Positions 4,134 to 64,000 of a stretch of DNA of 64,000 nucleotides are shown piece by piece. The stretch's first letter is position 1, and every line of letters starts with the position of its first letter. A model generated the notes under the pieces. The model ran no database searches, was not told where the DNA came from, and worked only from the letters and a program-made list of their open reading frames with translations. The translations under genes and the position numbers were made by a program. This DNA comes from Dehalococcoidia bacterium (GTDB lineage: Bacteria > Chloroflexota > Dehalococcoidia > Bin125): contig OZ241849.1 in the NCBI GenBank assembly GCA_965203165.1, forward strand, positions 1,281,267 to 1,345,266, given 5' to 3'.

Positions 4134-4358
4134 CTAGACGGCGGCGGGCAGGGAAACCGCAACGACGCTGGTCGTGGTGGTTGCCTCGGGGATCGGATCC
4201 CCGTCTTCCACGATGCCCTCGAGGTGAAACTTGATTGCGCTGCGGATCTCAGCTTCGGTCTCTTCGCGGGTCGATCCGGTGGCGATGCAGCCTGGCAAGT
4301 CAGGCACGTAGGCCGAGTAGTTGTTGGCGGCCTTCTCGATCACGACGACGTACTGCAC
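4134..4358 (-). CDS. hicB: HicB-family antitoxin (UPF0150), orphan
   Basis: YVVVIEKAANNYSAYVPDLPGCIATGSTREETEAEIRSAIKFHLEG matches the HicB/UPF0150 signature (YxVxIE...VPDLPGC...EEA). GTG start with a GGAGGTGA ribosome-binding site. No HicA gene is adjacent. Confidence 0.7.
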   Translation of the reverse strand: MQYVVVIEKAANNYSAYVPDLPGCIATGSTREETEAEIRSAIKFHLEGIVEDGDPIPEATTTTSVVAVSLPAAV

Positions 4359-4463
4359 GACTCACCTCCGCTCGCGCAAACCTGCTCGCCGCTGCGGGCA
4401 TCGTCTCCGAGCTTCGGTGGATGCTAGCATCGGCGGTAACCGAACATCGTTTGGAGCAGCCGA

Positions 4464-5306
<843 letters not shown>

Positions 5307-5322
5307 CGGCCGGGAGCGAGCA

Positions 5323-6051
5323 ATGCCGAGCATTCCCGCCGAGCTGGGCGATGTCCGCGCGCTGACCTTTGATGTCTTCGGCACGGTGGTCGACTGGCGC
5401 TCGTCGGTGATCGGCGAGCTGGAGTCGTTCGGCGCGCGGCACGGCCTGGAGGCCGACTGGGGCGTGTTCGCCGATCGCTGGCGGCGCGAGGGCTACGCGG
5501 GCGGGATGCGGCTGGTGCGCGACGGCGAACTGCCTTTTCAGACCGCCGACTCGCTGCACCGGCGAATGCTCGACATCCTGCTCACCGAGCTGGGCGCGGA
5601 GGTCGACGAGGATGAGGTCGCCGATCTCAACCGCGTCTGGCATCGGCTCGCGCCGTGGCCCGACTCGGCGGCGGGGCTGGCGCGGCTGCGCGCCGGCCAC
5701 ACCATCTCGACGCTCTCCAACGGCAACGTCGAGCTGTTGGTCAACATGGCCAAATTCGGCGGGCTGCCCTGGGACTGCATCCTCTCGGCCGAAATCACCG
5801 GCGCGTTCAAGCCTGAGGCGCGCTGCTACGAGCGGGCCGCCGAGCTGCTCGGCTGCGAGCCGCCGCAGGTGATGATGGTGGCCGCCCACCAGGGCGACCT
5901 GCTGGCCGCCGCGCAAACAGGGATGCGCACCGCCTTCGTCCCGCGCCCCAACGAAGCCGGTCCCAACCACCCGGCCGACCTGACCCCCGACCCATCCTTC
6001 AACATCGTCGCTTCCGACTTCCACGACCTCGCCCGCCAGCTCGGCCTCTGA
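5323..6051 (+). CDS. HAD-superfamily hydrolase, haloacid dehalogenase type II-like
   Basis: N-terminal motif FDVFGTVVDW (HAD motif I, typical of L-2-haloacid dehalogenase family). Confidence 0.7.
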   Translation: MPSIPAELGDVRALTFDVFGTVVDWRSSVIGELESFGARHGLEADWGVFADRWRREGYAGGMRLVRDGELPFQTADSLHRRMLDILLTELGAEVDEDEVADLNRVWHRLAPWPDSAAGLARLRAGHTISTLSNGNVELLVNMAKFGGLPWDCILSAEITGAFKPEARCYERAAELLGCEPPQVMMVAAHQGDLLAAAQTGMRTAFVPRPNEAGPNHPADLTPDPSFNIVASDFHDLARQLGL

Positions 6052-6111
6052 CTCGGCGCGCACGCGATATCTTCCCTGCAACGAGGCAGCGAGCGAGCGA
6101 GGAGTGCGACA

Positions 6112-6906
6112 GTGCTGGACGCGCAGAGCTACACGACGATCGAGATTGAAAAGCGCGGCGACGGGGTGGTGATCGCCAGGCTGAACCGCCCCGAGAAGCT
6201 CAACGCGGTCAACGCCGCGATGCACCGCGAGCTGGCTGCCCTGCCGCTTGACGCCAACCGCGACCCGGATGTGCGCGTGCTGGTGCTGACCGGCGCGGGG
6301 CGGGCGTTCTGCGCCGGCGGCGATTTCAGCGCGGATCGCGATGAGCCGATGGGCGGGAGCTACCTCAACTCGCTCAACGAGGCTCGCCTGATCGTGGATA
6401 ACTGGCTGGACCTGGAGAAGCCCGCGATTGCCGCGGTCAACGGCTACGCGCTGGGGCTGGGCGCGACGGTCGCGCTGCTCTCGGATGTGGTCTACGCCGG
6501 CAAGAGCGGCGTGCTCGGCGACACGCACGTGAACATGGGGATCGGGGCGGGCGACGGCGGCGGGGTGCTTTGGCCGATGCTGATCGGCCCTTCCCGCGCC
6601 AAGTACTACCTGATGACCGGCGAGCACATCAGCGCCGAAGCGGCGGCGGCGATGGGGCTGATCCACGCGGCAGTCGAGGATGACGAGCTGATGCCCACTG
6701 CGCTCGGTCTGGCGGAGCGTCTGGCCAACGGGCCGATCCGGGCGATCTCCGCTTCCAAGGTGCCGGTCAACAAGTGGGTCAAGTTCGTCTCGAATCTCGT
6801 GCTGCCCGTCTCCCTGGCGATGGAGGGGATCACGATGAGCGGCGGCGAGGCGTCCGAAGCCCAGGCCGCCTTCCGCGAAAAGCGCCAGCCGCGCTTCCGC
6901 GCCTAG
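6112..6906 (+). CDS. Enoyl-CoA hydratase/isomerase (crotonase family)
   Basis: LNRPEKLNAVN...VLTGAGRAFCAGGDF crotonase signature. Confidence 0.8.
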   Translation: MLDAQSYTTIEIEKRGDGVVIARLNRPEKLNAVNAAMHRELAALPLDANRDPDVRVLVLTGAGRAFCAGGDFSADRDEPMGGSYLNSLNEARLIVDNWLDLEKPAIAAVNGYALGLGATVALLSDVVYAGKSGVLGDTHVNMGIGAGDGGGVLWPMLIGPSRAKYYLMTGEHISAEAAAAMGLIHAAVEDDELMPTALGLAERLANGPIRAISASKVPVNKWVKFVSNLVLPVSLAMEGITMSGGEASEAQAAFREKRQPRFRA

Positions 6907-6968
6907 GCGCTCCCGATATGAGTGCCTGTACCCTGCCGTCTAGCGGGCGCGGGGGATAGGCTCGCGCT

Positions 6969-8531
6969 ATGGGATGGCATCGCCTGCTCTGGATCTTCGC
7001 GTGTCTGGCCTGCGCCGCGATCGCGGCCGCAGCCTGCGTTGACGACGCTGACGACGCGCGCGCCGCGTCGGCGCAGACTGAGCAACAGGCGGAACCGCGG
7101 GCCCGCCAGCAGGCGCAGTCCGAACCGGAAGAGCCAAGCGCCGCCGCGCCGCAGCAGCAGGCCGGCGAGCAGCAGCAGGACGCAGGCGAGGCGCAGTCGG
7201 ATCAGCAGCAGGAGCGGAGCGCTCGCCCGGCAATGCAGGCGCAGCAAAACGGGCAGGCCTACGCGCCGCAGCAGCAGGACGCATACGCGAGCGACGCGGC
7301 CGGTCCGCCCGCGGTCGCCGCGCCGCCGCGCGAAGTGATCACCGACGGATTCCCGCTGACGCCCAGCGCGCCCGCGGCGGGCGACGAATACGGCTGGTCG
7401 GCCGTTGTGGACGGCGACATCATCGCAGTCGGCGCGCCCTACCACGACGCTGTAGCCGAGGATGCCGGCGCGGTTTTCATCTTCGAGCGGAGCGGCGATG
7501 AGTGGGTTGAGACGGCGAAGCTGCTGCCGCCGTTCGGCGAGAAAGACGGGTGGTTCGGGCGCTGGTTGGCGCTCGACGACGGGCGGCTGCTGGTCGGCGC
7601 TCCCTACGAGGATCTCTGGCAAGCGTCAGGCGGCGATTGGGTCGTCGATGTGGGCGCGGCCTACATCTACGAGAAGGTGGACGGGGAGTGGGTGCGCACG
7701 GCGACGTTGCTGCCCGAAACGCTCGCGCCCGGCCTCTCGTTCGGTTGGTCGGTCGCGATCCACGGCGATCGCCTCGCCGTGTCGGCTTGGGCGGAGACAG
7801 TCGGCGAAGAGCTGGCGGGCGCCGTTTACGTCTACCAGGAGGCGAAGGGGCTGTGGCGTCTCGAAGAGCGCATTACCCCGCCCGAGCCGCAGGCCATTCA
7901 CCAGTTCGGGCGCGATATCGAGCTGGAGCAGAACGTGCTGGTCGTCGGCGCGCCGGGCCACGACGGGGATGAGCGCGAAGACATCGGGGCGGTGTTCGTC
8001 TACCACCGGTACGACCACACCTGGAACTTCACCGGCACGTTCATCGCGCCCGACGGCGGCGAGGGCGATGCGCTCGGCTCGCAGGTCACGCTGGCGCTGC
8101 CCTGGTTTGCGGCGGGCGCGCACAGCCATGACGGCGAGGAGTTGGAGGCGGGGGCGGTTTATGTCTGGCGGCTGGGCGATTACTGGGCGCTGCACAGCCG
8201 CTTGACTGCGTCGGATGTGGTGCTCGGCGACTGGTTCGGCTATGCGCCGGCGGTGGAAGGGGAGCGGCTGGTGATCGGCTCGCCGCACCGAGCGGATCCC
8301 GACACCGGCCTCTACCGCACCGGCGCGGCCTACATCTTCGAGCTGGAGGGCGACCAGTGGGTGGAGCGCGGCGTGGTGGGCCCGGTCGATCCCGTCCTGC
8401 ATGGCGAACAGGCGGAGTTCGGCTGGGTCACCGATGTGGACGGCGGCACCATCGTGGTAGGCGCCTGGCTGGCCGACACGGACGCCGGCGAGAACGCCGG
8501 GGCCGCGGCGGTTTATGTCGTTGACCCGTAG
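6969..8531 (+). CDS. FG-GAP repeat lipoprotein
   Basis: Signal/lipobox FACLACAAIAAAAC. A Q/A/E-rich low-complexity linker follows, then repeated ...FGWSVA..GD.L.VGAP... FG-GAP-like repeats. Confidence 0.55.
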   Translation: MGWHRLLWIFACLACAAIAAAACVDDADDARAASAQTEQQAEPRARQQAQSEPEEPSAAAPQQQAGEQQQDAGEAQSDQQQERSARPAMQAQQNGQAYAPQQQDAYASDAAGPPAVAAPPREVITDGFPLTPSAPAAGDEYGWSAVVDGDIIAVGAPYHDAVAEDAGAVFIFERSGDEWVETAKLLPPFGEKDGWFGRWLALDDGRLLVGAPYEDLWQASGGDWVVDVGAAYIYEKVDGEWVRTATLLPETLAPGLSFGWSVAIHGDRLAVSAWAETVGEELAGAVYVYQEAKGLWRLEERITPPEPQAIHQFGRDIELEQNVLVVGAPGHDGDEREDIGAVFVYHRYDHTWNFTGTFIAPDGGEGDALGSQVTLALPWFAAGAHSHDGEELEAGAVYVWRLGDYWALHSRLTASDVVLGDWFGYAPAVEGERLVIGSPHRADPDTGLYRTGAAYIFELEGDQWVERGVVGPVDPVLHGEQAEFGWVTDVDGGTIVVGAWLADTDAGENAGAAAVYVVDP

Positions 8532-55374: not shown

Positions 55375-56214
55375 GTGTCGATCCTCGAAGTCATCGTCCT
55401 CGCCGTCGTCCAGGGGCTCACCGAATTTCTGCCGATCAGCAGCAGCGGCCACCTCGCCCTGACGCGCTGGCTGTTCGGCTGGGACGACCCCGGCTTGGCC
55501 TTTGATGTCGCCGTCCACGCCGGCACGCTGCTGGCGATCGTCTGGGCGTTTCGGCATGAAATCGTCGCGGTCCTGCGCGGCCTGCGGCTGAGCGCGGCGG
55601 ACGCGGCGGACGCGGCGCGCGCGCCGCGCGTTGACGGGCTGACTCCCCAACGGCTCATCGCGCTGGGCTTCGTCGCCACCGTGCCGCTGGCGATCATCGG
55701 CGCGCCGCTCTACGCGGCGCTCGAATCCGACCTGCGCGGGCCGACCAGCGCCGCCGCGTTTCTGCTGGTCACCGCCGCGCTGATCGCGCTGGCCGAGTGG
55801 CGCGCCCGCGGGTCGCCCAACGAGTCGCTGGCGAGCCTCACGCTGCCCCGCGCCGCGGCGATCGGCGTCGCGCAGGCGCTTGCCGCGCTGCCCGGCCTCT
55901 CGCGCGCGGGGATGTGCATCGTGGCCGGCGTGTCGCTCGGACACAGCCGCGAGGCGGCAGCCCGCTTCGCTTTCTGGCTGGCGTTGCCGGCGCTGACGGG
56001 GGCGGGCGCGCTGGCGATCCGCGCCGTGCTCGAGGAGGACGCCGCCGCGCAGATCGGGCATTTGGCGCTGGGAGCGGCCGTCGCCTGTCTTGCCGCGCTG
56101 CTCGCGATTCGCGCGCTGCTCTGGCTGACCCGCTCCCGCTCGCTTATGCCTTTCGCCGGCTGGTGTCTGCTGGCGGGCGGCGCCAACCTGATCGCGCGGG
56201 CGGCGGGGGGCTAA
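55375..56214 (+). CDS. uppP: Undecaprenyl-diphosphatase
   Basis: EVIVLAVVQGLTEFLPISSSGHL is the BacA/UppP signature. Confidence 0.85.
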   Translation: MSILEVIVLAVVQGLTEFLPISSSGHLALTRWLFGWDDPGLAFDVAVHAGTLLAIVWAFRHEIVAVLRGLRLSAADAADAARAPRVDGLTPQRLIALGFVATVPLAIIGAPLYAALESDLRGPTSAAAFLLVTAALIALAEWRARGSPNESLASLTLPRAAAIGVAQALAALPGLSRAGMCIVAGVSLGHSREAAARFAFWLALPALTGAGALAIRAVLEEDAAAQIGHLALGAAVACLAALLAIRALLWLTRSRSLMPFAGWCLLAGGANLIARAAGG

Positions 56215-56840
56215 TTCTCGTCGCGCCAGATCAGCGTCAGGTCGGCGGTGAAGCCGCGCAGCACATCTTCGCCCGAAAGCGTGTCGGGGCGCTTGAGCAC
56301 CTCAGGCGGCCGATCGGGCCGGTAGATGTGCGCAGTGCTCGTGAACGGATCGATCAACCAGCCGAGCCGCACGCCGTAGGAAAGCCAGAGCTCCATCTTC
56401 TCCTGCTGGCGATGCAGTTGGTCGGATGGAGAGACGATTTCGACGACAAAGTCTGGGCAGATTTGCCAGATGCCTTCGTCGCCCGGCGCGATTTGGCGGG
56501 CCCGTTGCGGCGAAATCCAGGCGACATCCGGCGCTCGCACCACGCGGTTGCCCAGGCGAAAGAACCCGTCGGCGGTTGTTCCGCGCCCGCCCCCACCAGC
56601 GCGCATCCAGATGAAGAGTTGCCCGCCGAAATCGAATGCGCGCTCGCTGCTCGCGCCGCCGGCTCCGCTCACGATCACCAGCCTTCCCAGTTCGTCGAAC
56701 TCAAACTCGCGGTCTTCGTTCAGACTGCACAGATCGATCAGCGCCTGGTCGCTCAGCGCCCACGCCGACGGCAGCGCCAGGGTAAGCGGCGCAGAGGGCG
56801 CAATCGCAGGCGCGGGCGGCGGGGCTTCAAGCGTGACCAT
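56211..56840 (-). CDS. Uma2-family (DUF820) PD-(D/E)xK endonuclease
   Basis: PDFVVEIVSPS core motif; 209 aa is typical of the family. Confidence 0.65.
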   Translation of the reverse strand: MVTLEAPPPAPAIAPSAPLTLALPSAWALSDQALIDLCSLNEDREFEFDELGRLVIVSGAGGASSERAFDFGGQLFIWMRAGGGGRGTTADGFFRLGNRVVRAPDVAWISPQRARQIAPGDEGIWQICPDFVVEIVSPSDQLHRQQEKMELWLSYGVRLGWLIDPFTSTAHIYRPDRPPEVLKRPDTLSGEDVLRGFTADLTLIWRDEN

Positions 56841-60117: not shown

Positions 60118-61005
60118 ATGCGACTGGCCAGCTTCTCCTTCGAGGATCGCGAGCGGGTTGGAGTGATCGTCGGCGACGAAATCGTCGACCTGTTCCTCGC
60201 CGAACCCGAGGCTCCGACCGACATGTGCGACTTTCTCGCGGCCGGCGAGGAAACCCGCGTGATGGCGGAGATGGCCGTCGAGCGGGGCGGCAACCGGCGT
60301 CCGCTGGGCGAGGTGCGGCTGCTCGCGCCGGTGCCGCGCCCGAGCAAGTTCCTCGCGGTCGGGCTCAACTATGCGGACCACATCGCCGAAACCGGCGCGG
60401 AGACGCCGCGCTACCCGACGATCTTCACCAAGCAGCGCACCTGCGTGAACCGCCCCGGCGGCGAAATTCAGATCCCGCTCGCCTCGAAAAATGTCGACTA
60501 CGAGGGCGAACTGGGCATTGTGATCGGCCAGGCTTGCCGCCACGTCGCCGCGGCCGACGCGCCCTCCGTGATCGCCGGCTACACGATCGTCAACGATGTT
60601 TCGGTGCGCGACTGGCAGAATCGCACGCGGCAGTTCACGATGGGCAAGTCGTTCGACAGCCACGGGCCGATGGGGCCGGTGATCGTCAGCGCGGACGAGC
60701 TGGGCGACCCGCACGCGCTTGGCATTCGCACGTTCGTCAACGGCGAGCTGCGGCAGAACTCCAACACCGAGCACCTGATCTTCAACTGCTTCGACATCGT
60801 CGAATACCTCAGCACCGCCTTCACGCTGGAGCCGGGCGATGTGATCGCGACGGGCACGCCGTCGGGCGTGGCGGTCGCCATGACGCCGCCGCGCTGGCTC
60901 ACGCCGGGCGACATCGTGCGGGTCGAAATCAACGGCATCGGGGCGCTGGAAAACATCTGCGCGGCAGAGCCGCAGCCGGCGGCGGACGGCAGCGAGCATC
61001 ACTAG
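60118..61005 (+). CDS. Fumarylacetoacetate hydrolase (FAH) family protein
   Basis: KFLAVGLNYADH...DYEGELGIVIG is the FAH-family fold signature. Confidence 0.8.
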   Translation: MRLASFSFEDRERVGVIVGDEIVDLFLAEPEAPTDMCDFLAAGEETRVMAEMAVERGGNRRPLGEVRLLAPVPRPSKFLAVGLNYADHIAETGAETPRYPTIFTKQRTCVNRPGGEIQIPLASKNVDYEGELGIVIGQACRHVAAADAPSVIAGYTIVNDVSVRDWQNRTRQFTMGKSFDSHGPMGPVIVSADELGDPHALGIRTFVNGELRQNSNTEHLIFNCFDIVEYLSTAFTLEPGDVIATGTPSGVAVAMTPPRWLTPGDIVRVEINGIGALENICAAEPQPAADGSEHH

Positions 61006-61039
61006 CCGAAAGCGAGGGCGGCGCCCGGCGCCTACGGCG

Positions 61040-62059
61040 TTATTCGCCGCCGCTGGCGCCCGGCGACGCTTCCTCGACCCGCCGCAGGATTTCCTCGGCG
61101 AGCGACTTGAAGTCGAAAAACGCATCCTGGGCTGCGAGCGCGTGACTGCCAATCGCTCCGTCTCCTGCCGACAGATCGAAAATCGGCTTTCGCGCATCCT
61201 GGCCCAGCGGGATCAGGCTGCGGTAGTGTTTCACCGTCGCAATGCAGTTGCGGTCGGATTCCGTGTCCGCTCCCGCCGACGCTTCGCGCAGCACGTTGTG
61301 CGCGTATTCCACAGGCATCCGCTGAACCCAGCGATCGTAGGCCTGTACCGGACGATGTTCGCGCTCAATGTACTGTTGCACAAGATAGCCGAGAGGCGCC
61401 ATATCGCCCGTCGGCAGCTCAAACTCAGGCTCCGGCCAATTTTCCCGCCGCTTCCGCCAGTCGGCTCGCCAGCGAGTCAGCGTTGGACCGAGATTGCGCA
61501 ATCCCTGACGCGAGAACAGGTCCGCCGCAAGCGGCACGACCACGAAGTCGGTCGCAATCAACGCAGAGCGGTTGATCGCGCCCAGGCTGGGCCCCAAATC
61601 GACGACGATCAGATCCGCCTCACTTGATCGAGCGCCTGCCTGCATGACCTGCCAGAACGCGGTCACTACCCGAAACGCGCGATAGAGGTTCTCGCCTCCG
61701 AGGCAATTCGGCCACTCCGAGGACAGCAGCTCTTCGAATCCGGATAGCGCGAGGTCGCCCGGGAGGAGATGCAGGCCGTCCGTAATCCAGATTGGAGACG
61801 GTTCCTGTAGATCGCCAACTCGCGTCAGCGGCTCCACGCACTGGTAGATCGTCTCCGGCGCGCCCGGCACCGGTCGATCCCACAGCCGCAGCATGGCGTC
61901 TTCGTCTCGAAACGCCGCAGTCAGATTCGCCTGGGGGTCCAGATCTACCGCCAGCACCGATCGACCGACTCGGGGCAGCATCCACGCCAGGTGATACACC
62001 AGCGACGTTTTGCCGACCCCGCCCTTGTTGTTGAAGAATGTCAGCACGGGTACGCTCAT
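61040..62059 (-). CDS. ParA/MinD-like P-loop ATPase
   Basis: TFFNNKGGVGKTS deviant Walker A. About 340 aa with a long C-terminal region. Its start overlaps the upstream stop (ATGA). Confidence 0.6.
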   Translation of the reverse strand: MSVPVLTFFNNKGGVGKTSLVYHLAWMLPRVGRSVLAVDLDPQANLTAAFRDEDAMLRLWDRPVPGAPETIYQCVEPLTRVGDLQEPSPIWITDGLHLLPGDLALSGFEELLSSEWPNCLGGENLYRAFRVVTAFWQVMQAGARSSEADLIVVDLGPSLGAINRSALIATDFVVVPLAADLFSRQGLRNLGPTLTRWRADWRKRRENWPEPEFELPTGDMAPLGYLVQQYIEREHRPVQAYDRWVQRMPVEYAHNVLREASAGADTESDRNCIATVKHYRSLIPLGQDARKPIFDLSAGDGAIGSHALAAQDAFFDFKSLAEEILRRVEEASPGASGGE

Positions 62060-63267
62060 GATCCCGCCCTCACCGTGCAAGACACCCAATTCGGGTCAAC
62101 CCGAAATTCGGGATCTGGTTGATCATTCTCGTGCAGCGCCCGCCGGGCATCCTGAATCCCGTACCCGAACCGTTGCACCAGGCCGAGCGCTCGCATCGTC
62201 TCGGTCAGATTCGGATTGCGGTAATCTACCGCCTCGGGCTGGCCGAAGGTTTCCTTCGTTACGATACCGTACGGACCTCCCGGACTCATGATCTCCACCC
62301 GGTCATCGTACCAGTAGACCCGCACCGGCGCATTCGTCGACTCGTAGGTCCGATGCATCACAGCGTTCCGCGTCAACTGTTGCAGCGCAAACAGCGGGTA
62401 GCTCGAATGGCGCTGCTCGACCGGCCCCGACCGAATGTCGATGCTTGTCCTGATATGCGCGCGCAGCTTTTCGTCCAGGCGGCGAATCACTTGGGCAATC
62501 GGCCCGTCGTATTGCCCTTCATCGACGATCTCGTCGCCAAGCTTCTGCCCCGCAATTCGCAAGAACTGGACGTACGCGCCGGGGAAGAAATCCAGCGGGC
62601 TCTTGCCGAGCGTCAGAATGCCGGTTACCGTCGGCGTGGGATCAGACACCGAGATGATCATTTTGGTTGCCGCCAGGCGCTCTTCCACCGTGCGATCGTT
62701 TCGCGCCAGCAATTCCGGATTGACCGCCGCGATCAGATACTCCCCCTCAAAGCGGAGCAAGTCGAGATCCGCGATCCGCGCCCGCCGCACCGGCTGCGCG
62801 TCGAAGTATCGATCCAGATACCAACGCCGCTCGTTCAAAATCCGCTCGTCTTGCGCGGTCGCGACCCGACACGTTGGGCCGATGCGAACCACAATCCGCC
62901 CCTGATAGCTGACGGGCGGCGAGTCCGACGGGTGAACCGTCACCACTGCCACCTCATCGCCTCGCAGCGTGCGTTTTTCGACGGACAAGGTAGGCGGCGG
63001 CACGATGTTGCCGTCCGACCGTACGTTACTCAGGTTAGTCAGCAGACCATCCGAAATGTCGAGCCCGTTCGGCTGTCCTGCGTTGTCCACGCCCACAAAC
63101 ACGACACCGGCGCGCCGATGATTCGCCAGGTCATTCGCGAATCCGCATACCGCCTCGCGAATCCGCTTCCCGGACTCCCGGCTGAGTAATTCCTTGAATT
63201 CCACGGATTCGCCTTCGCCCGCGGCCAGCATCCCCTCCAACTCCGCATCCGAGTATGTCCCGGCCAT
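62056..63267 (-). CDS. AlbA_2 (Schlafen-like) DNA-binding domain plus HATPase_c_4 protein (often annotated as RecG-like or transcriptional regulator)
   Basis: N-terminal ESVEFKELLS...REAVCGFANDLANHRRAGVVFVGVDNAG (AlbA_2 pattern). C-terminal VRVYWYDDRVEIMSPGGP (HATPase_c_4 pattern). Confidence 0.55.
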   Translation of the reverse strand: MAGTYSDAELEGMLAAGEGESVEFKELLSRESGKRIREAVCGFANDLANHRRAGVVFVGVDNAGQPNGLDISDGLLTNLSNVRSDGNIVPPPTLSVEKRTLRGDEVAVVTVHPSDSPPVSYQGRIVVRIGPTCRVATAQDERILNERRWYLDRYFDAQPVRRARIADLDLLRFEGEYLIAAVNPELLARNDRTVEERLAATKMIISVSDPTPTVTGILTLGKSPLDFFPGAYVQFLRIAGQKLGDEIVDEGQYDGPIAQVIRRLDEKLRAHIRTSIDIRSGPVEQRHSSYPLFALQQLTRNAVMHRTYESTNAPVRVYWYDDRVEIMSPGGPYGIVTKETFGQPEAVDYRNPNLTETMRALGLVQRFGYGIQDARRALHENDQPDPEFRVDPNWVSCTVRAGS

Positions 63268-63279
63268 GCGTGGTCTCTT

Positions 63280-63885
63280 CTACTCCCCCGCCAGCTTAGC
63301 GCGGACTGGGGGCCAGAGTTGGGCGAACCTCGGCACGCTGCCTGGGGGAGTGGGGCGGGCCGCGAAGAAGCGGCCGCCGGGGCGGGTGCGCAGCTCGATC
63401 AGCAGCGGGCCGGGGGCGGCCAGCAGATCATCCAGCGCCGCATCCAACTCCTCCGCTTCCGAGAAGCTCGCCGTGGCGCGATAGCCCGCGCCGGCCGCCA
63501 GCGCCGCGAAATCGACCCGCTCCTCCGACGGCAGCGGCTGCGCGCCCGAAGTCTCGTAGACGCCGTTATGCACCACGAAATGCACGAAATTCTCCGCGCC
63601 CGTCCCCGCAATCGTGCCCAGCGAACCGAGCTGCATCATCAGCGAGCCGTCGCCGTCGATCACCCAGACCTCGCGCTCCGGCTGTGCCAGCGCCACGCCC
63701 AGACCGAGCGCGGATGCGCCGCCCATGAAGCCGATGCAGGCCAAATTCAGGTCGCCCGGCGCGCGCTCCGCCCAGAGGCCGTTGGCGGTCATCGTGCCCA
63801 CCACGACCTGGTCCGACCAGTGCCGCGCCAGCACATCCAGCGCCGCCTCCAGCGACATTCGCCCGCCCGCTTCCGCGCCGCTCAT
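63280..63885 (-). CDS. Thiamine-diphosphate enzyme, C-terminal (PP-binding) domain protein; sulfopyruvate/phosphonopyruvate decarboxylase beta-subunit-like
   Basis: GDGS...N TPP-binding motif (VIDGDGSLMMQLGSL...NGVYETSG). About 200 aa, typical of a split beta subunit. Confidence 0.55.
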   Translation of the reverse strand: MSGAEAGGRMSLEAALDVLARHWSDQVVVGTMTANGLWAERAPGDLNLACIGFMGGASALGLGVALAQPEREVWVIDGDGSLMMQLGSLGTIAGTGAENFVHFVVHNGVYETSGAQPLPSEERVDFAALAAGAGYRATASFSEAEELDAALDDLLAAPGPLLIELRTRPGGRFFAARPTPPGSVPRFAQLWPPVRAKLAGE

Positions 63886-64000
63886 GAGGTCGTCGCTCCG
63901 ACCAGCAGCGCGACCGGCCCCTCGCGCTCTTCGGCCTCTTCAAACGCCTCGCCCACGTAGTGCAAGTCCTCGACGCCGTCGAGCAGATGGCTCGGCACGC
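63882..64000 (-). CDS. Partial ORF: probable alpha subunit of the same split TPP decarboxylase (C-terminal end only)
   Basis: Reverse frame ...VPSHLLDGVEDLHYVGEAFEEAEEREGPVALLVGATTS* ends in TGA overlapping the ATG of the beta subunit (ATGA). Truncated by the window edge. Confidence 0.35.
   Translation of the reverse strand, partial: VPSHLLDGVEDLHYVGEAFEEAEEREGPVALLVGATTS

Follow-up and report, generated by a model that had tools for sequence, protein, structure and literature searches.

The paired Schlatpase and ParA-like ATPase genes

The DNA analysed here, hereafter the window, is a stretch of 64,000 nucleotides (nt) from contig OZ241849.1 of a Dehalococcoidia bacterium (positions 1,281,267 to 1,345,266), and contains on its minus strand two overlapping genes, coding for a Schlafen (SLFN)-type protein with a GHKL ATP-binding domain, or Schlatpase, and for a ParA-like ATPase. 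The pairing of these genes is not due to chance: they constitute a real two-gene cassette that is found in hundreds of bacterial species. The features of the locus, in window coordinates, are the following:

62056-63267, minus strand: Schlatpase gene, 403 residues plus stop (open reading frame list and Pfam)
63193-63216, minus strand: motif E18-x4-E23-x-K25 of Schlatpase (family alignment)
62860-63216, minus strand: SLFN_AlbA_2 nuclease domain, residues 18-136 (Pfam)
62068-62415, minus strand: GHKL (HATPase_c_4) ATP-binding domain, about residues 285-400 (Pfam match to residues 313-398)
62341-62379, minus strand: GHKL N-box, Q297-L-T-R-N301-A-V-M-H305-R306 (alignment)
62377-62379, minus strand: codon of Gln297, at the position of the GHKL general base (alignment with E314 of the Schlafen-Argonaute protein RzAgo)
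62056-62059, minus strand: ATGA overlap of the Schlatpase stop and ATPase start codons (read in the sequence)
61040-62059, minus strand: ParA-like ATPase gene, 339 residues plus stop (AAA_31 and CbiA matches, 3PG5-like subclade)
62006-62032, minus strand: deviant Walker A motif of the ATPase, N10-N-K12-G-G-V-G-K17-T18, with signature lysine K12
61394-61477, minus strand: clade-specific Trp/Arg-rich segment of the ATPase, residues 195-222, in a long helix after Walker B

A preliminary description of this locus, made from the sequence, had proposed an operon of two overlapping open reading frames (ORFs), and both lie where it placed them. The overlap is real, with the ATG of the ATPase gene (62059-62057) overlapping the TGA of the Schlatpase gene (62058-62056), which implies translational coupling; together with the near-obligatory pairing of both genes in other genomes, it upholds the proposed operon. 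The ATPase ORF had been called mechanically from a TTG at 62089, but we place the start at the ATG at 62059 (MSVPVLTFFNNKGGVGKTS) because 20 aligned homologues all open with M-x-x-P-V-L-T-F-F-N-N-K-G-G. The length of 340 residues given for the ATPase is correct as a count of codons including the stop, whereas the protein itself has 339 residues. The lower GC content that had been described for the pair was likewise found, with values of 0.60-0.64 across both genes and of 0.67-0.70 in both flanks.

Domains and active sites of Schlatpase

Schlatpase comprises an N-terminal Schlafen/AlbA_2 nuclease domain (PF04326, SLFN_AlbA_2, residues 18-136; 60.9 bits, cutoff 25.3), a helical linker and a C-terminal GHKL domain (PF13749, HATPase_c_4, residues 313-398; 62.6 bits, cutoff 26), with no C-terminal helix-turn-helix (HTH) domain. 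A search of NCBIfam returned nothing for this protein, and the PADLOC models for prokaryotic Argonaute (pAgo) and for Aga showed only partial matches to residues 190-382 (E values from 1e-9 to 4e-7). In the family alignment, E18 and K25 of the nuclease motif are invariant and E23 is present in at least 90 % of the sequences, the pattern E-x4-(E/D)-x-K, which has been defined in PMC13056530 and in the preprint on RzAgo, being kept in 139 of 140. The Schlafen box reads C41-G-F-A-N45-D-L in the window protein (consensus C-A-F-A-N), with N45 invariant. The preliminary assignment to the AlbA_2/Schlafen type was thus right, but its label as a DNA-binding domain was not, and the domain is better named a nuclease because it contains the Schlafen motif E-x4-E-x-K.

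The GHKL domain contains invariant N301, H305, R306, E309, G330, G334, G368 and G370, and a nearly invariant G331, with the G-boxes S-P-G330-G331 and R-F-G368-Y-G370-I. The position of the catalytic Glu, however, is occupied by Gln297 in the window protein and by Gln in all 134 family sequences that were readable at this position, including members that lack an ATPase partner. Glu-to-Gln mutants of GHKL ATPases provide a precedent for ATP binding with poor hydrolysis and, by analogy with them, since the catalytic Glu is always Gln, the GHKL domain of Schlatpase probably binds ATP and hydrolyses it poorly.

An AlphaFold2 (AF2) model of Schlatpase, using an alignment assembled from database hits (mean predicted local distance difference test score, pLDDT, 77.8), matched structure 3LMM along its full length; 3LMM has Glu at the GHKL catalytic position. 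The modelled N-terminal domain matched the structures of SLFN11, SLFN14, SLFN13 and SLFN5 and of the SAMD9 tRNase, and the modelled C-terminal domain those of PDK and of the catalytic and ATP-binding domains of histidine kinases. Judged from its predicted domain content, the protein is a member of the Schlatpase (SLFN plus GHKL) class that has one of the defining catalytic residues replaced.

The ATPase has a ParA fold but belongs to a distinct subclade

The second protein matched the Pfam families AAA_31 (85 bits) and CbiA (44 bits). In the alignment of 20 homologues, the deviant Walker A motif has invariant K12 and T18 and nearly invariant G13, G14 and K17, and the Walker A' aspartates D39 and D41 and the Walker B aspartate D154 are also invariant; across the ATPase family, 131 of 145 members have a canonical Walker A. 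Searching the PDB with a profile retrieved 3PG5 over its full length (1.3e-36); 3PG5 was also the top fold for the AF2 model of the ATPase (pLDDT 80.6; predicted template modelling score 0.86), followed by Soj and plasmid ParAs.

The Trp/Arg-rich segment has the sequence T-R-W197-R198-A-D-W201-R-K-R204-R-E-N-W208 ... F213-x-L-P, where W197, R198, W201, R204, W208, F213, L215 and P216 are invariant in the alignment, and the AF2 model has a helix at residues 181-206. W197 is also conserved in the wider clade, members linked to SIR2 proteins (see below) included, and we infer a functional role for this segment.

Curated partition models scored far under their cutoffs (TIGR03453, RepA, 59.4 vs 348 bits; NF041546, ParA_partition, 58.1 vs 180 bits), and the only PADLOC match of the ATPase was that of its P-loop (residues 3-41) to PDC-M28B. 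Existing database annotations of the two genes are 'ParA family protein', 'AAA family ATPase', 'putative DNA binding domain-containing protein' and 'RecG'. These results indicate that the ATPase has a ParA fold yet is not a partition ParA, belonging instead to a distinct 3PG5-like subclade.

The pair is conserved across bacterial phyla

With an ATPase profile, at least 572 (about 0.3 % or more) of 185,579 species-representative genomes were found to contain a relative, and an exhaustive search with a hidden Markov model gave 662 clusters at 50 % identity (E<=1e-30) for the wider ATPase family, SIR2-linked and orphan relatives included. The locus samples described hereafter are the best 80 matches of each scan, mostly from metagenome-assembled genomes (MAGs), with neighbouring genes called by a simple ORF script. 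The best 80 ATPase loci span more than a dozen phyla, among them Acidobacteriota, Spirochaetota, Gemmatimonadota, Planctomycetota, Chloroflexota, Pseudomonadota, Desulfobacterota, Verrucomicrobiota, Bacteroidota, Nitrospirota and Elusimicrobiota, with 58-71 % identity to the window protein, which is about equally similar (67-71 %) to homologues from six different phyla.

The preliminary description had held that an absence of co-occurrence in other genomes would speak against a system, but the two families are nearly always found together. In 78 of 81 genome loci with upstream DNA (from the best 80 of the profile scan plus three loci found by exact-protein look-ups), the ATPase gene is immediately preceded by Schlatpase-coding sequence, and 64 loci, counting the window, have an uninterrupted Schlatpase ORF of more than 380 residues. 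Conversely, the ATPase gene was directly downstream of Schlatpase in 66 of the 75 metagenome loci with downstream DNA, out of 80 sampled. A 4-bp overlap (ATGA, GTGA or TTGA) is kept in 64 of the 71 measurable pairs from other genomes. Clustering of neighbouring ORFs did not identify a third conserved gene, and a third component of the system was rejected, the largest neighbour family being present in no more than 6 of 64 loci.

The pairwise identities of one protein correlate with those of the other (r=0.80 over 60 pairs; Mantel p<=0.001), also when only divergent pairs are considered (r=0.60), so that both trees mirror one another, and for both proteins the identity among pairs from different phyla has a minimum of 50-52 % and a mean of 60-64 %. 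In 60 of 61 loci the GC content of the pair is under that of the flanking DNA, with a mean difference of 4.6 points, and it still follows that of the host (slope 0.87). Because of this lower GC content and the equal similarity to homologues from six phyla, the pair looks like an old accessory cassette that has spread horizontally.

The two proteins also occur as a single chain. Protein P0419 has 731 residues with the domain order SLFN_AlbA_2, HATPase_c_4 and AAA_31, and was found on 15 contigs from independent samples (L177:5001-7196, also L178 and L179), adjoining the gene for prolyl-tRNA synthetase. It retains Glu at the GHKL catalytic position, and its nuclease motif is E-x4-E-x-T, not E-x4-E-x-K. 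P0419 is a Rosetta-stone fusion and, along with the translational coupling, gives indirect support to a physical contact between both proteins.

Decayed loci, ATPase-less members and genomic contexts

Several loci have an altered or missing Schlatpase gene. In L038 it has a large internal deletion leaving a clean in-frame remnant of 131 residues (5609-6004); in L016 a large internal deletion leaves an ORF of 183 residues with the middle out of frame (5450-6001); in L067 it is interrupted by an ORF of 325 residues (4423-5713); and L050 contains an orphan ATPase. The ATPases of L028 and L047 (around 6004-7023) show NNRSGVGKT in place of the Walker A sequence, as well as other substitutions, with no Schlatpase nearby; L028 has IS21-type genes near the ATPase, and its genome contains a second, intact Schlatpase elsewhere (P0341).

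In the other direction, 9 of the 75 metagenome loci contain an intact Schlatpase with its catalytic motif and no ATPase. In a neighbour-joining tree these nine are scattered beside ATPase-linked relatives, with 64-79 % identity, indicating that the ATPase was lost repeatedly. One of them adjoins BrxL-like and PglZ-like genes and another an ABC-type ATPase and a DUF1156 methylase, as read from sequence only, and a third is near a MazF-like gene. Members of the subfamily with 51-57 % identity to the window protein are situated in loci read as resembling bacteriophage exclusion (BREX) systems (L125 and L143). The BREX-like neighbours of ATPase-less members agree with the Schlafen-HisK RNases reported from BREX loci (PMC12839542). 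In L087, an ATPase-less Schlatpase is followed by a protein of 248 residues (4659-5405) with no Pfam match at E<=0.001, which could be an alternative partner.

The pair itself is found within or after genes of the Hma defence system in three loci. In L079 (1281-8768, MAG of an unclassified bacterium) and L080 (1303-9946, Thermodesulfovibrionales MAG) it lies between HmaA, an SNF2 helicase (608-1572 bits), and HmaB, an adenine methylase (E 1e-129 to 1e-178), the four genes pointing in one direction and either overlapping or leaving gaps of no more than about 225 nt. In L010 (1191-7017, Burkholderiaceae MAG) it directly follows HmaA (1692 bits), and the ORF next downstream had no PADLOC match.

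Sister ATPases are coupled to other toxic-type effectors

ATPases of a sister clade, with 27-33 % identity to the window protein, align with it over their full length and share its clade motifs. They are followed by a SIR2_2/ThsA-like protein of 260-300 residues, usually with a 4-bp overlap; the overlap is larger in L164, and L165, L166 and L171 show none, with gaps of up to about 80 nt. These pairs occur in five IMG/VR viral contigs, in the chromosome of an actinobacterium and on Spirosoma and Salmonella Infantis plasmids; a match on a Vibrio ponticus plasmid likewise covers the ATPase gene and a SIR2 gene. The pairs are located as follows:

L164, 7992-9867: ParA-like ATPase and SIR2_2 pair
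L165, 7959-9872: ParA-like ATPase and SIR2_2 pair
L166, 1287-3255: ParA-like ATPase and SIR2_2 pair
L167, 4787-6645: ParA-like ATPase and SIR2_2 pair
L168, 8004-9862: ParA-like ATPase and SIR2_2 pair
L171, 7001-8892: ParA-like ATPase and SIR2_2 pair
L173, 3510-5398: ParA-like ATPase and SIR2_2 pair
L174, 3504-5422: ParA-like ATPase and SIR2_2 pair

Two of the viral pairs are directly after an integrase gene, and in general the pairs adjoin integrases, recombinases, methylases and helicases. PADLOC recognised only the SIR2 half, and we found no name for the pair. Solo sister ATPases are situated near recombinases, a type I restriction system and an Abi gene.

A further type of toxic domain was found within the family itself. 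In protein P0458 the Walker A motif is degenerate (FFNPHGAVGTTS) and is combined with a C-terminal RES domain (PF08808), and in its cassettes (L180:3814-6638, also L181 and L182) a Schlatpase gene precedes it with a 4-bp overlap. Two genes downstream of this RES-fused variant there is an RNA-ligase-like gene.

Structures 3PG5 (DIP2308) and 3LMM (DIP2311), the best PDB relatives of the two proteins, come from the same Corynebacterium diphtheriae genome, with locus tags that are three apart, and were considered as a possible solved example of the pair. This was not supported: in L169, a C. diphtheriae contig, the ATPase gene (4170-5279) is followed by genes for VanZ and a GH25 lysozyme and by housekeeping genes, and a Schlatpase is absent to a distance of 7 kb. 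The DIP2311 gene may be variable among strains.

Other features of the window

Downstream of the pair there is a convergent gene for a fumarylacetoacetate (FAA) hydrolase (60118-61005), and upstream the gene for a subunit of a thiamine pyrophosphate (TPP) enzyme ends 12 nt ahead of the Schlatpase gene. Further neighbours in the window code for a family III CoA transferase, BacA, a nitroreductase and a Uma2-family putative restriction endonuclease (PF05685, 105 bits; 56211-56840, minus strand), the latter gene being located some 4 kb away from the pair, between those for BacA and the CoA transferase. In L001, a locus syntenic with the window, the Uma2 interval contains just one unannotated gene of 81 residues.

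No Rfam match and no tRNA were found in the whole window. A scan of positions 60800-64000 gave no sigma-70-like promoter, although the 69 % GC content of the genome makes such a scan uninformative, and terminator-like matches were no more than expected from shuffled sequence, which is equally uninformative at 69 % GC.

Relation to known systems

A characterised relative with the two domains in equal order is RzAgo, a protein of the SLFN-pAgo type whose Schlafen-GHKL supradomain is driven by ATP to form tetramers, upon which it cleaves tRNA and gives protection from phage (bioRxiv 10.64898/2026.05.29.728809). Besides this order, the window protein shares with it the motif E-x4-(D/E)-x-K, the Schlafen box and, in the GHKL domain, the G-boxes and the Asn that binds Mg. 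It differs in having neither an Argonaute sensor nor a C-terminal HTH, in having a dedicated ParA-like partner, and in the Gln that replaces E314, a residue four positions before the Asn that in RzAgo is needed for ATP hydrolysis and defence, although not for ATP binding (bioRxiv 10.64898/2026.05.29.728809). The same study found a GHKL ATPase domain in 58.6 % of 103,533 prokaryotic Schlafen proteins and describes most Schlatpases as small and stand-alone, as the window protein is, and reports no conserved partner for SLFN-pAgos.

In an independent census of prokaryotic Schlafen (pSlfn) proteins, fusion to a HisKinase-like domain was the commonest architecture, with 34 % of 5,930 proteins (Perez Taboada et al., Nat Microbiol 2026, PMC13056530). 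The window protein resembles these in architecture, in catalytic motif and in the logic of an effector with a variable sensor, but the systems validated in that work are single genes with DUF262 or Ig-like sensors, and a two-gene form with a ParA-like protein is not mentioned. Schlafen-HisK RNases have also been reported as widespread accessory effectors of BREX and related systems (NAR 2026, PMC12839542). The subfamily studied here is similar in having members in BREX-like loci and in the location of the pair within or after Hma genes; in contrast, the BREX-linked RNases contain a C-terminal winged HTH and have no ATPase partner, and most copies of our pair adjoin no such system.

The ATPase resembles ParA/Soj and DIP2308 (3PG5), an orphan and uncharacterised ParA-like protein of C. 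diphtheriae, in its fold, in the deviant Walker A and in the aspartates of Walker A' and B, and its alignment with 3PG5 includes the clade-specific segments. Unlike ParA/Soj, it occurs without ParB or a centromere, and it scores far below the cutoffs of partition models. The 3PG5 protein is 29 % identical to the window ATPase, and the strain that we examined has neither a Schlatpase nor a SIR2 neighbour. The ParA-like and SIR2_2 pairs resemble the window pair in the use of a 3PG5-like ATPase and in its tight coupling to a toxic-type effector, but differ in that the ATPase gene comes first, that the effector is a ThsA-like SIR2 protein and not a nuclease, and that they are on mobile elements, whereas the Schlatpase-linked family is chromosomal.

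A comparable two-gene logic is found in PARIS, formed by the ATPase AriA and the tRNA nuclease AriB, where the ATPase controls a toxic nuclease that targets tRNA. The folds are unrelated to those of our pair, with an ABC/OLD-type ATPase and a Toprim nuclease; PARIS is a functional analogy and does not imply membership, and neither protein matched the AriA or AriB models of PADLOC.

The preliminary description could not assign the combination to a known system, and this holds: in PADLOC-DB v2.0.0 (2023) the two proteins never match components of one system, nor does either match a system as a whole. In the literature consulted, which did not cover most subscription journals, we found no description of a ParA partner of Schlafen proteins or of a ParA-SIR2 pair. 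Since PADLOC does not recognise the pair and no description was found, the cassette is most likely an undescribed two-gene variant of prokaryotic Schlafen anti-phage or conflict systems, with a ParA-like partner.

Proposed function and alternative explanations

We favour, with moderate confidence, a function of the cassette as a two-gene module directed against phages or mobile elements, in which a Schlafen RNase effector would be gated by a ParA-like regulatory or sensing switch. In its favour are the behaviour of the two genes as a unit, an effector that looks competent from its conserved nuclease and GHKL motifs and from its modelled match to SLFN and SAMD9 tRNase structures, and contexts that point to conflict, with the pair embedded in Hma operons, ATPase-less members beside BREX-like genes, a low GC content, a patchy distribution, and an ATPase clade that is also coupled to SIR2 and RES effectors. 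Schlatpase would be a metal-dependent endoribonuclease of the Schlafen type, most likely cutting tRNA, and would become active once ATP bound to the GHKL domain drives oligomerisation and builds a composite nuclease cleft, as in RzAgo. With Gln at its catalytic position and hydrolysis probably near absent, the GHKL domain could not reset itself. The translationally coupled ATPase, with its catalytic residues intact, would dimerise on ATP and, as a putative regulator or sensor, bind Schlatpase, possibly on nucleoid DNA, holding the nuclease off. A cue linked to infection would then alter the nucleotide-bound or DNA-bound state of the ATPase and release the nuclease, which would arrest translation. 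Since the hydrolysis site of the GHKL domain appears disabled, the reset or timing step may have moved to the ParA-like ATPase. The ATPase is placed on the sensor side because the toxic module varies among Schlatpase, SIR2 and RES, with the ATPase as the partner that stays the same.

Several observations weigh against this proposal. The conservation of the pair across phyla is unusual for defence or immune genes, and no relative with more than 33 % identity was found in 72,556 plasmids or in 50,697 phage records. Only a handful of the 237 nearest and next-nearest neighbour ORFs match PADLOC models; the commonest Pfam families among the neighbours are housekeeping, and most loci are outside recognisable defence islands. 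In the window, the surroundings are metabolic and the position of the pair is syntenic with that of its relative in L001 (74 % ATPase identity). The presence of Gln also in ATPase-less members weakens the idea that the reset is outsourced to the ParA-like partner, and the latter may act as an inhibitor, an activator or a localiser of the nuclease. Finally, two Schlafen-HisKinase proteins assayed in Escherichia coli gave no protection against the phages tried (PMC13056530).

Some of these points would fit better with a physiological module for RNA processing or stress, in which a ParA-type ATPase controls a nuclease acting on tRNA or other RNA, or positions it on the nucleoid, for instance to slow translation under stress. 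Conservation is high, comparable to that of core genes; the pair is chromosomal, mostly without mobile genes nearby, and, as mentioned, syntenic between the window and L001 and absent from the plasmid and phage collections; and 30 % of the pSlfn genes in the published census are also away from defence genes (PMC13056530). Nevertheless, a housekeeping role is difficult to reconcile with a patchy and phylogenetically mixed distribution, with a GC content systematically under that of the host, with the insertion of the pair in Hma operons, or with an ATPase clade that is also joined to SIR2 and RES toxin domains on mobile elements, and we consider this explanation unlikely.

Slightly less probable still is a toxin-antitoxin system, with Schlatpase as a constitutively toxic RNase and the ParA-like protein as its antitoxin, the cassette being kept because its loss kills the cell and not for any dedicated anti-phage role. 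The tight coupling of the two genes and their occurrence as a stand-alone cassette in varied contexts, mostly of housekeeping genes, would be in line with this, as would the loci L016, L038, L067 and L050, which retain an intact ATPase with the nuclease gene deleted, interrupted or absent; loss of the nuclease before the ATPase is the order expected if the nuclease is the toxic partner. However, the nine loci that keep an intact nuclease without the ATPase, scattered over the tree, indicate that the nuclease repeatedly tolerates the loss of its supposed antitoxin, which weakens a strict antitoxin role. Moreover, the partner is not a small labile binder but an enzyme of 339 residues with fully conserved ATPase residues, and a covalent fusion such as P0419 is hard to reconcile with an antitoxin that is degraded separately.

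The last alternative, a partition or cargo-positioning device with Schlatpase as a ParB-like adaptor, left behind by an integrated plasmid or an integrative and conjugative element, is suggested by the ParA fold and deviant Walker A of the ATPase, by Soj and ParA among its nearest solved folds, and by the NCBIfam RepA and ParA models as its best, albeit weak, named matches, but is very improbable and was rejected, since every test beyond the ATPase fold failed: those models score far under their cutoffs, there is no parB gene at the locus, no repeat family with more than two copies in the window and hence no centromere-like repeat array, no conserved third gene and no relative above 33 % identity on any of 72,556 plasmids, chromosomal contexts are varied, the partner has a conserved nuclease active site, and the sister clade is coupled to NADase-type toxins instead of DNA-binding adaptors. 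The preliminary description had also argued against a partition module and named a parB gene or partition site beyond position 61040 as what would overturn this; both were looked for and none was found.

Significance of a possible ParA-like switch

A broader and more tentative proposal, which we regard as possible but rather less than probable, is that 3PG5-like ParA ATPases are hitherto unrecognised infection sensors or switches placed over interchangeable effectors (Schlafen-GHKL RNases, SIR2 NADases on phages and plasmids, and RES domains in a fused variant), with the GHKL ATPase of Schlatpase disabled by the change to Gln and its hydrolysis-driven timing outsourced to the ParA-like partner. 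In that case ParA/MinD-type ATPases, so far known for positioning DNA or protein cargo, would join the regulators of bacterial immunity. A regulatory role of the ParA-like protein would represent a new use of the ParA fold, with three types of effectors (RNase, SIR2 and RES) under one family of sensors.

Among prokaryotic Schlafens, the stand-alone Schlafen-GHKL proteins form the largest class, and the cassette gives one large, very conserved subfamily of them a defined partner. It is a short (2.2 kb) and self-contained unit that can easily be cloned, and its natural Glu-to-Gln change lets the contributions of ATP binding and ATP hydrolysis to Schlafen activation be separated, which bears also on the human SLFN proteins.

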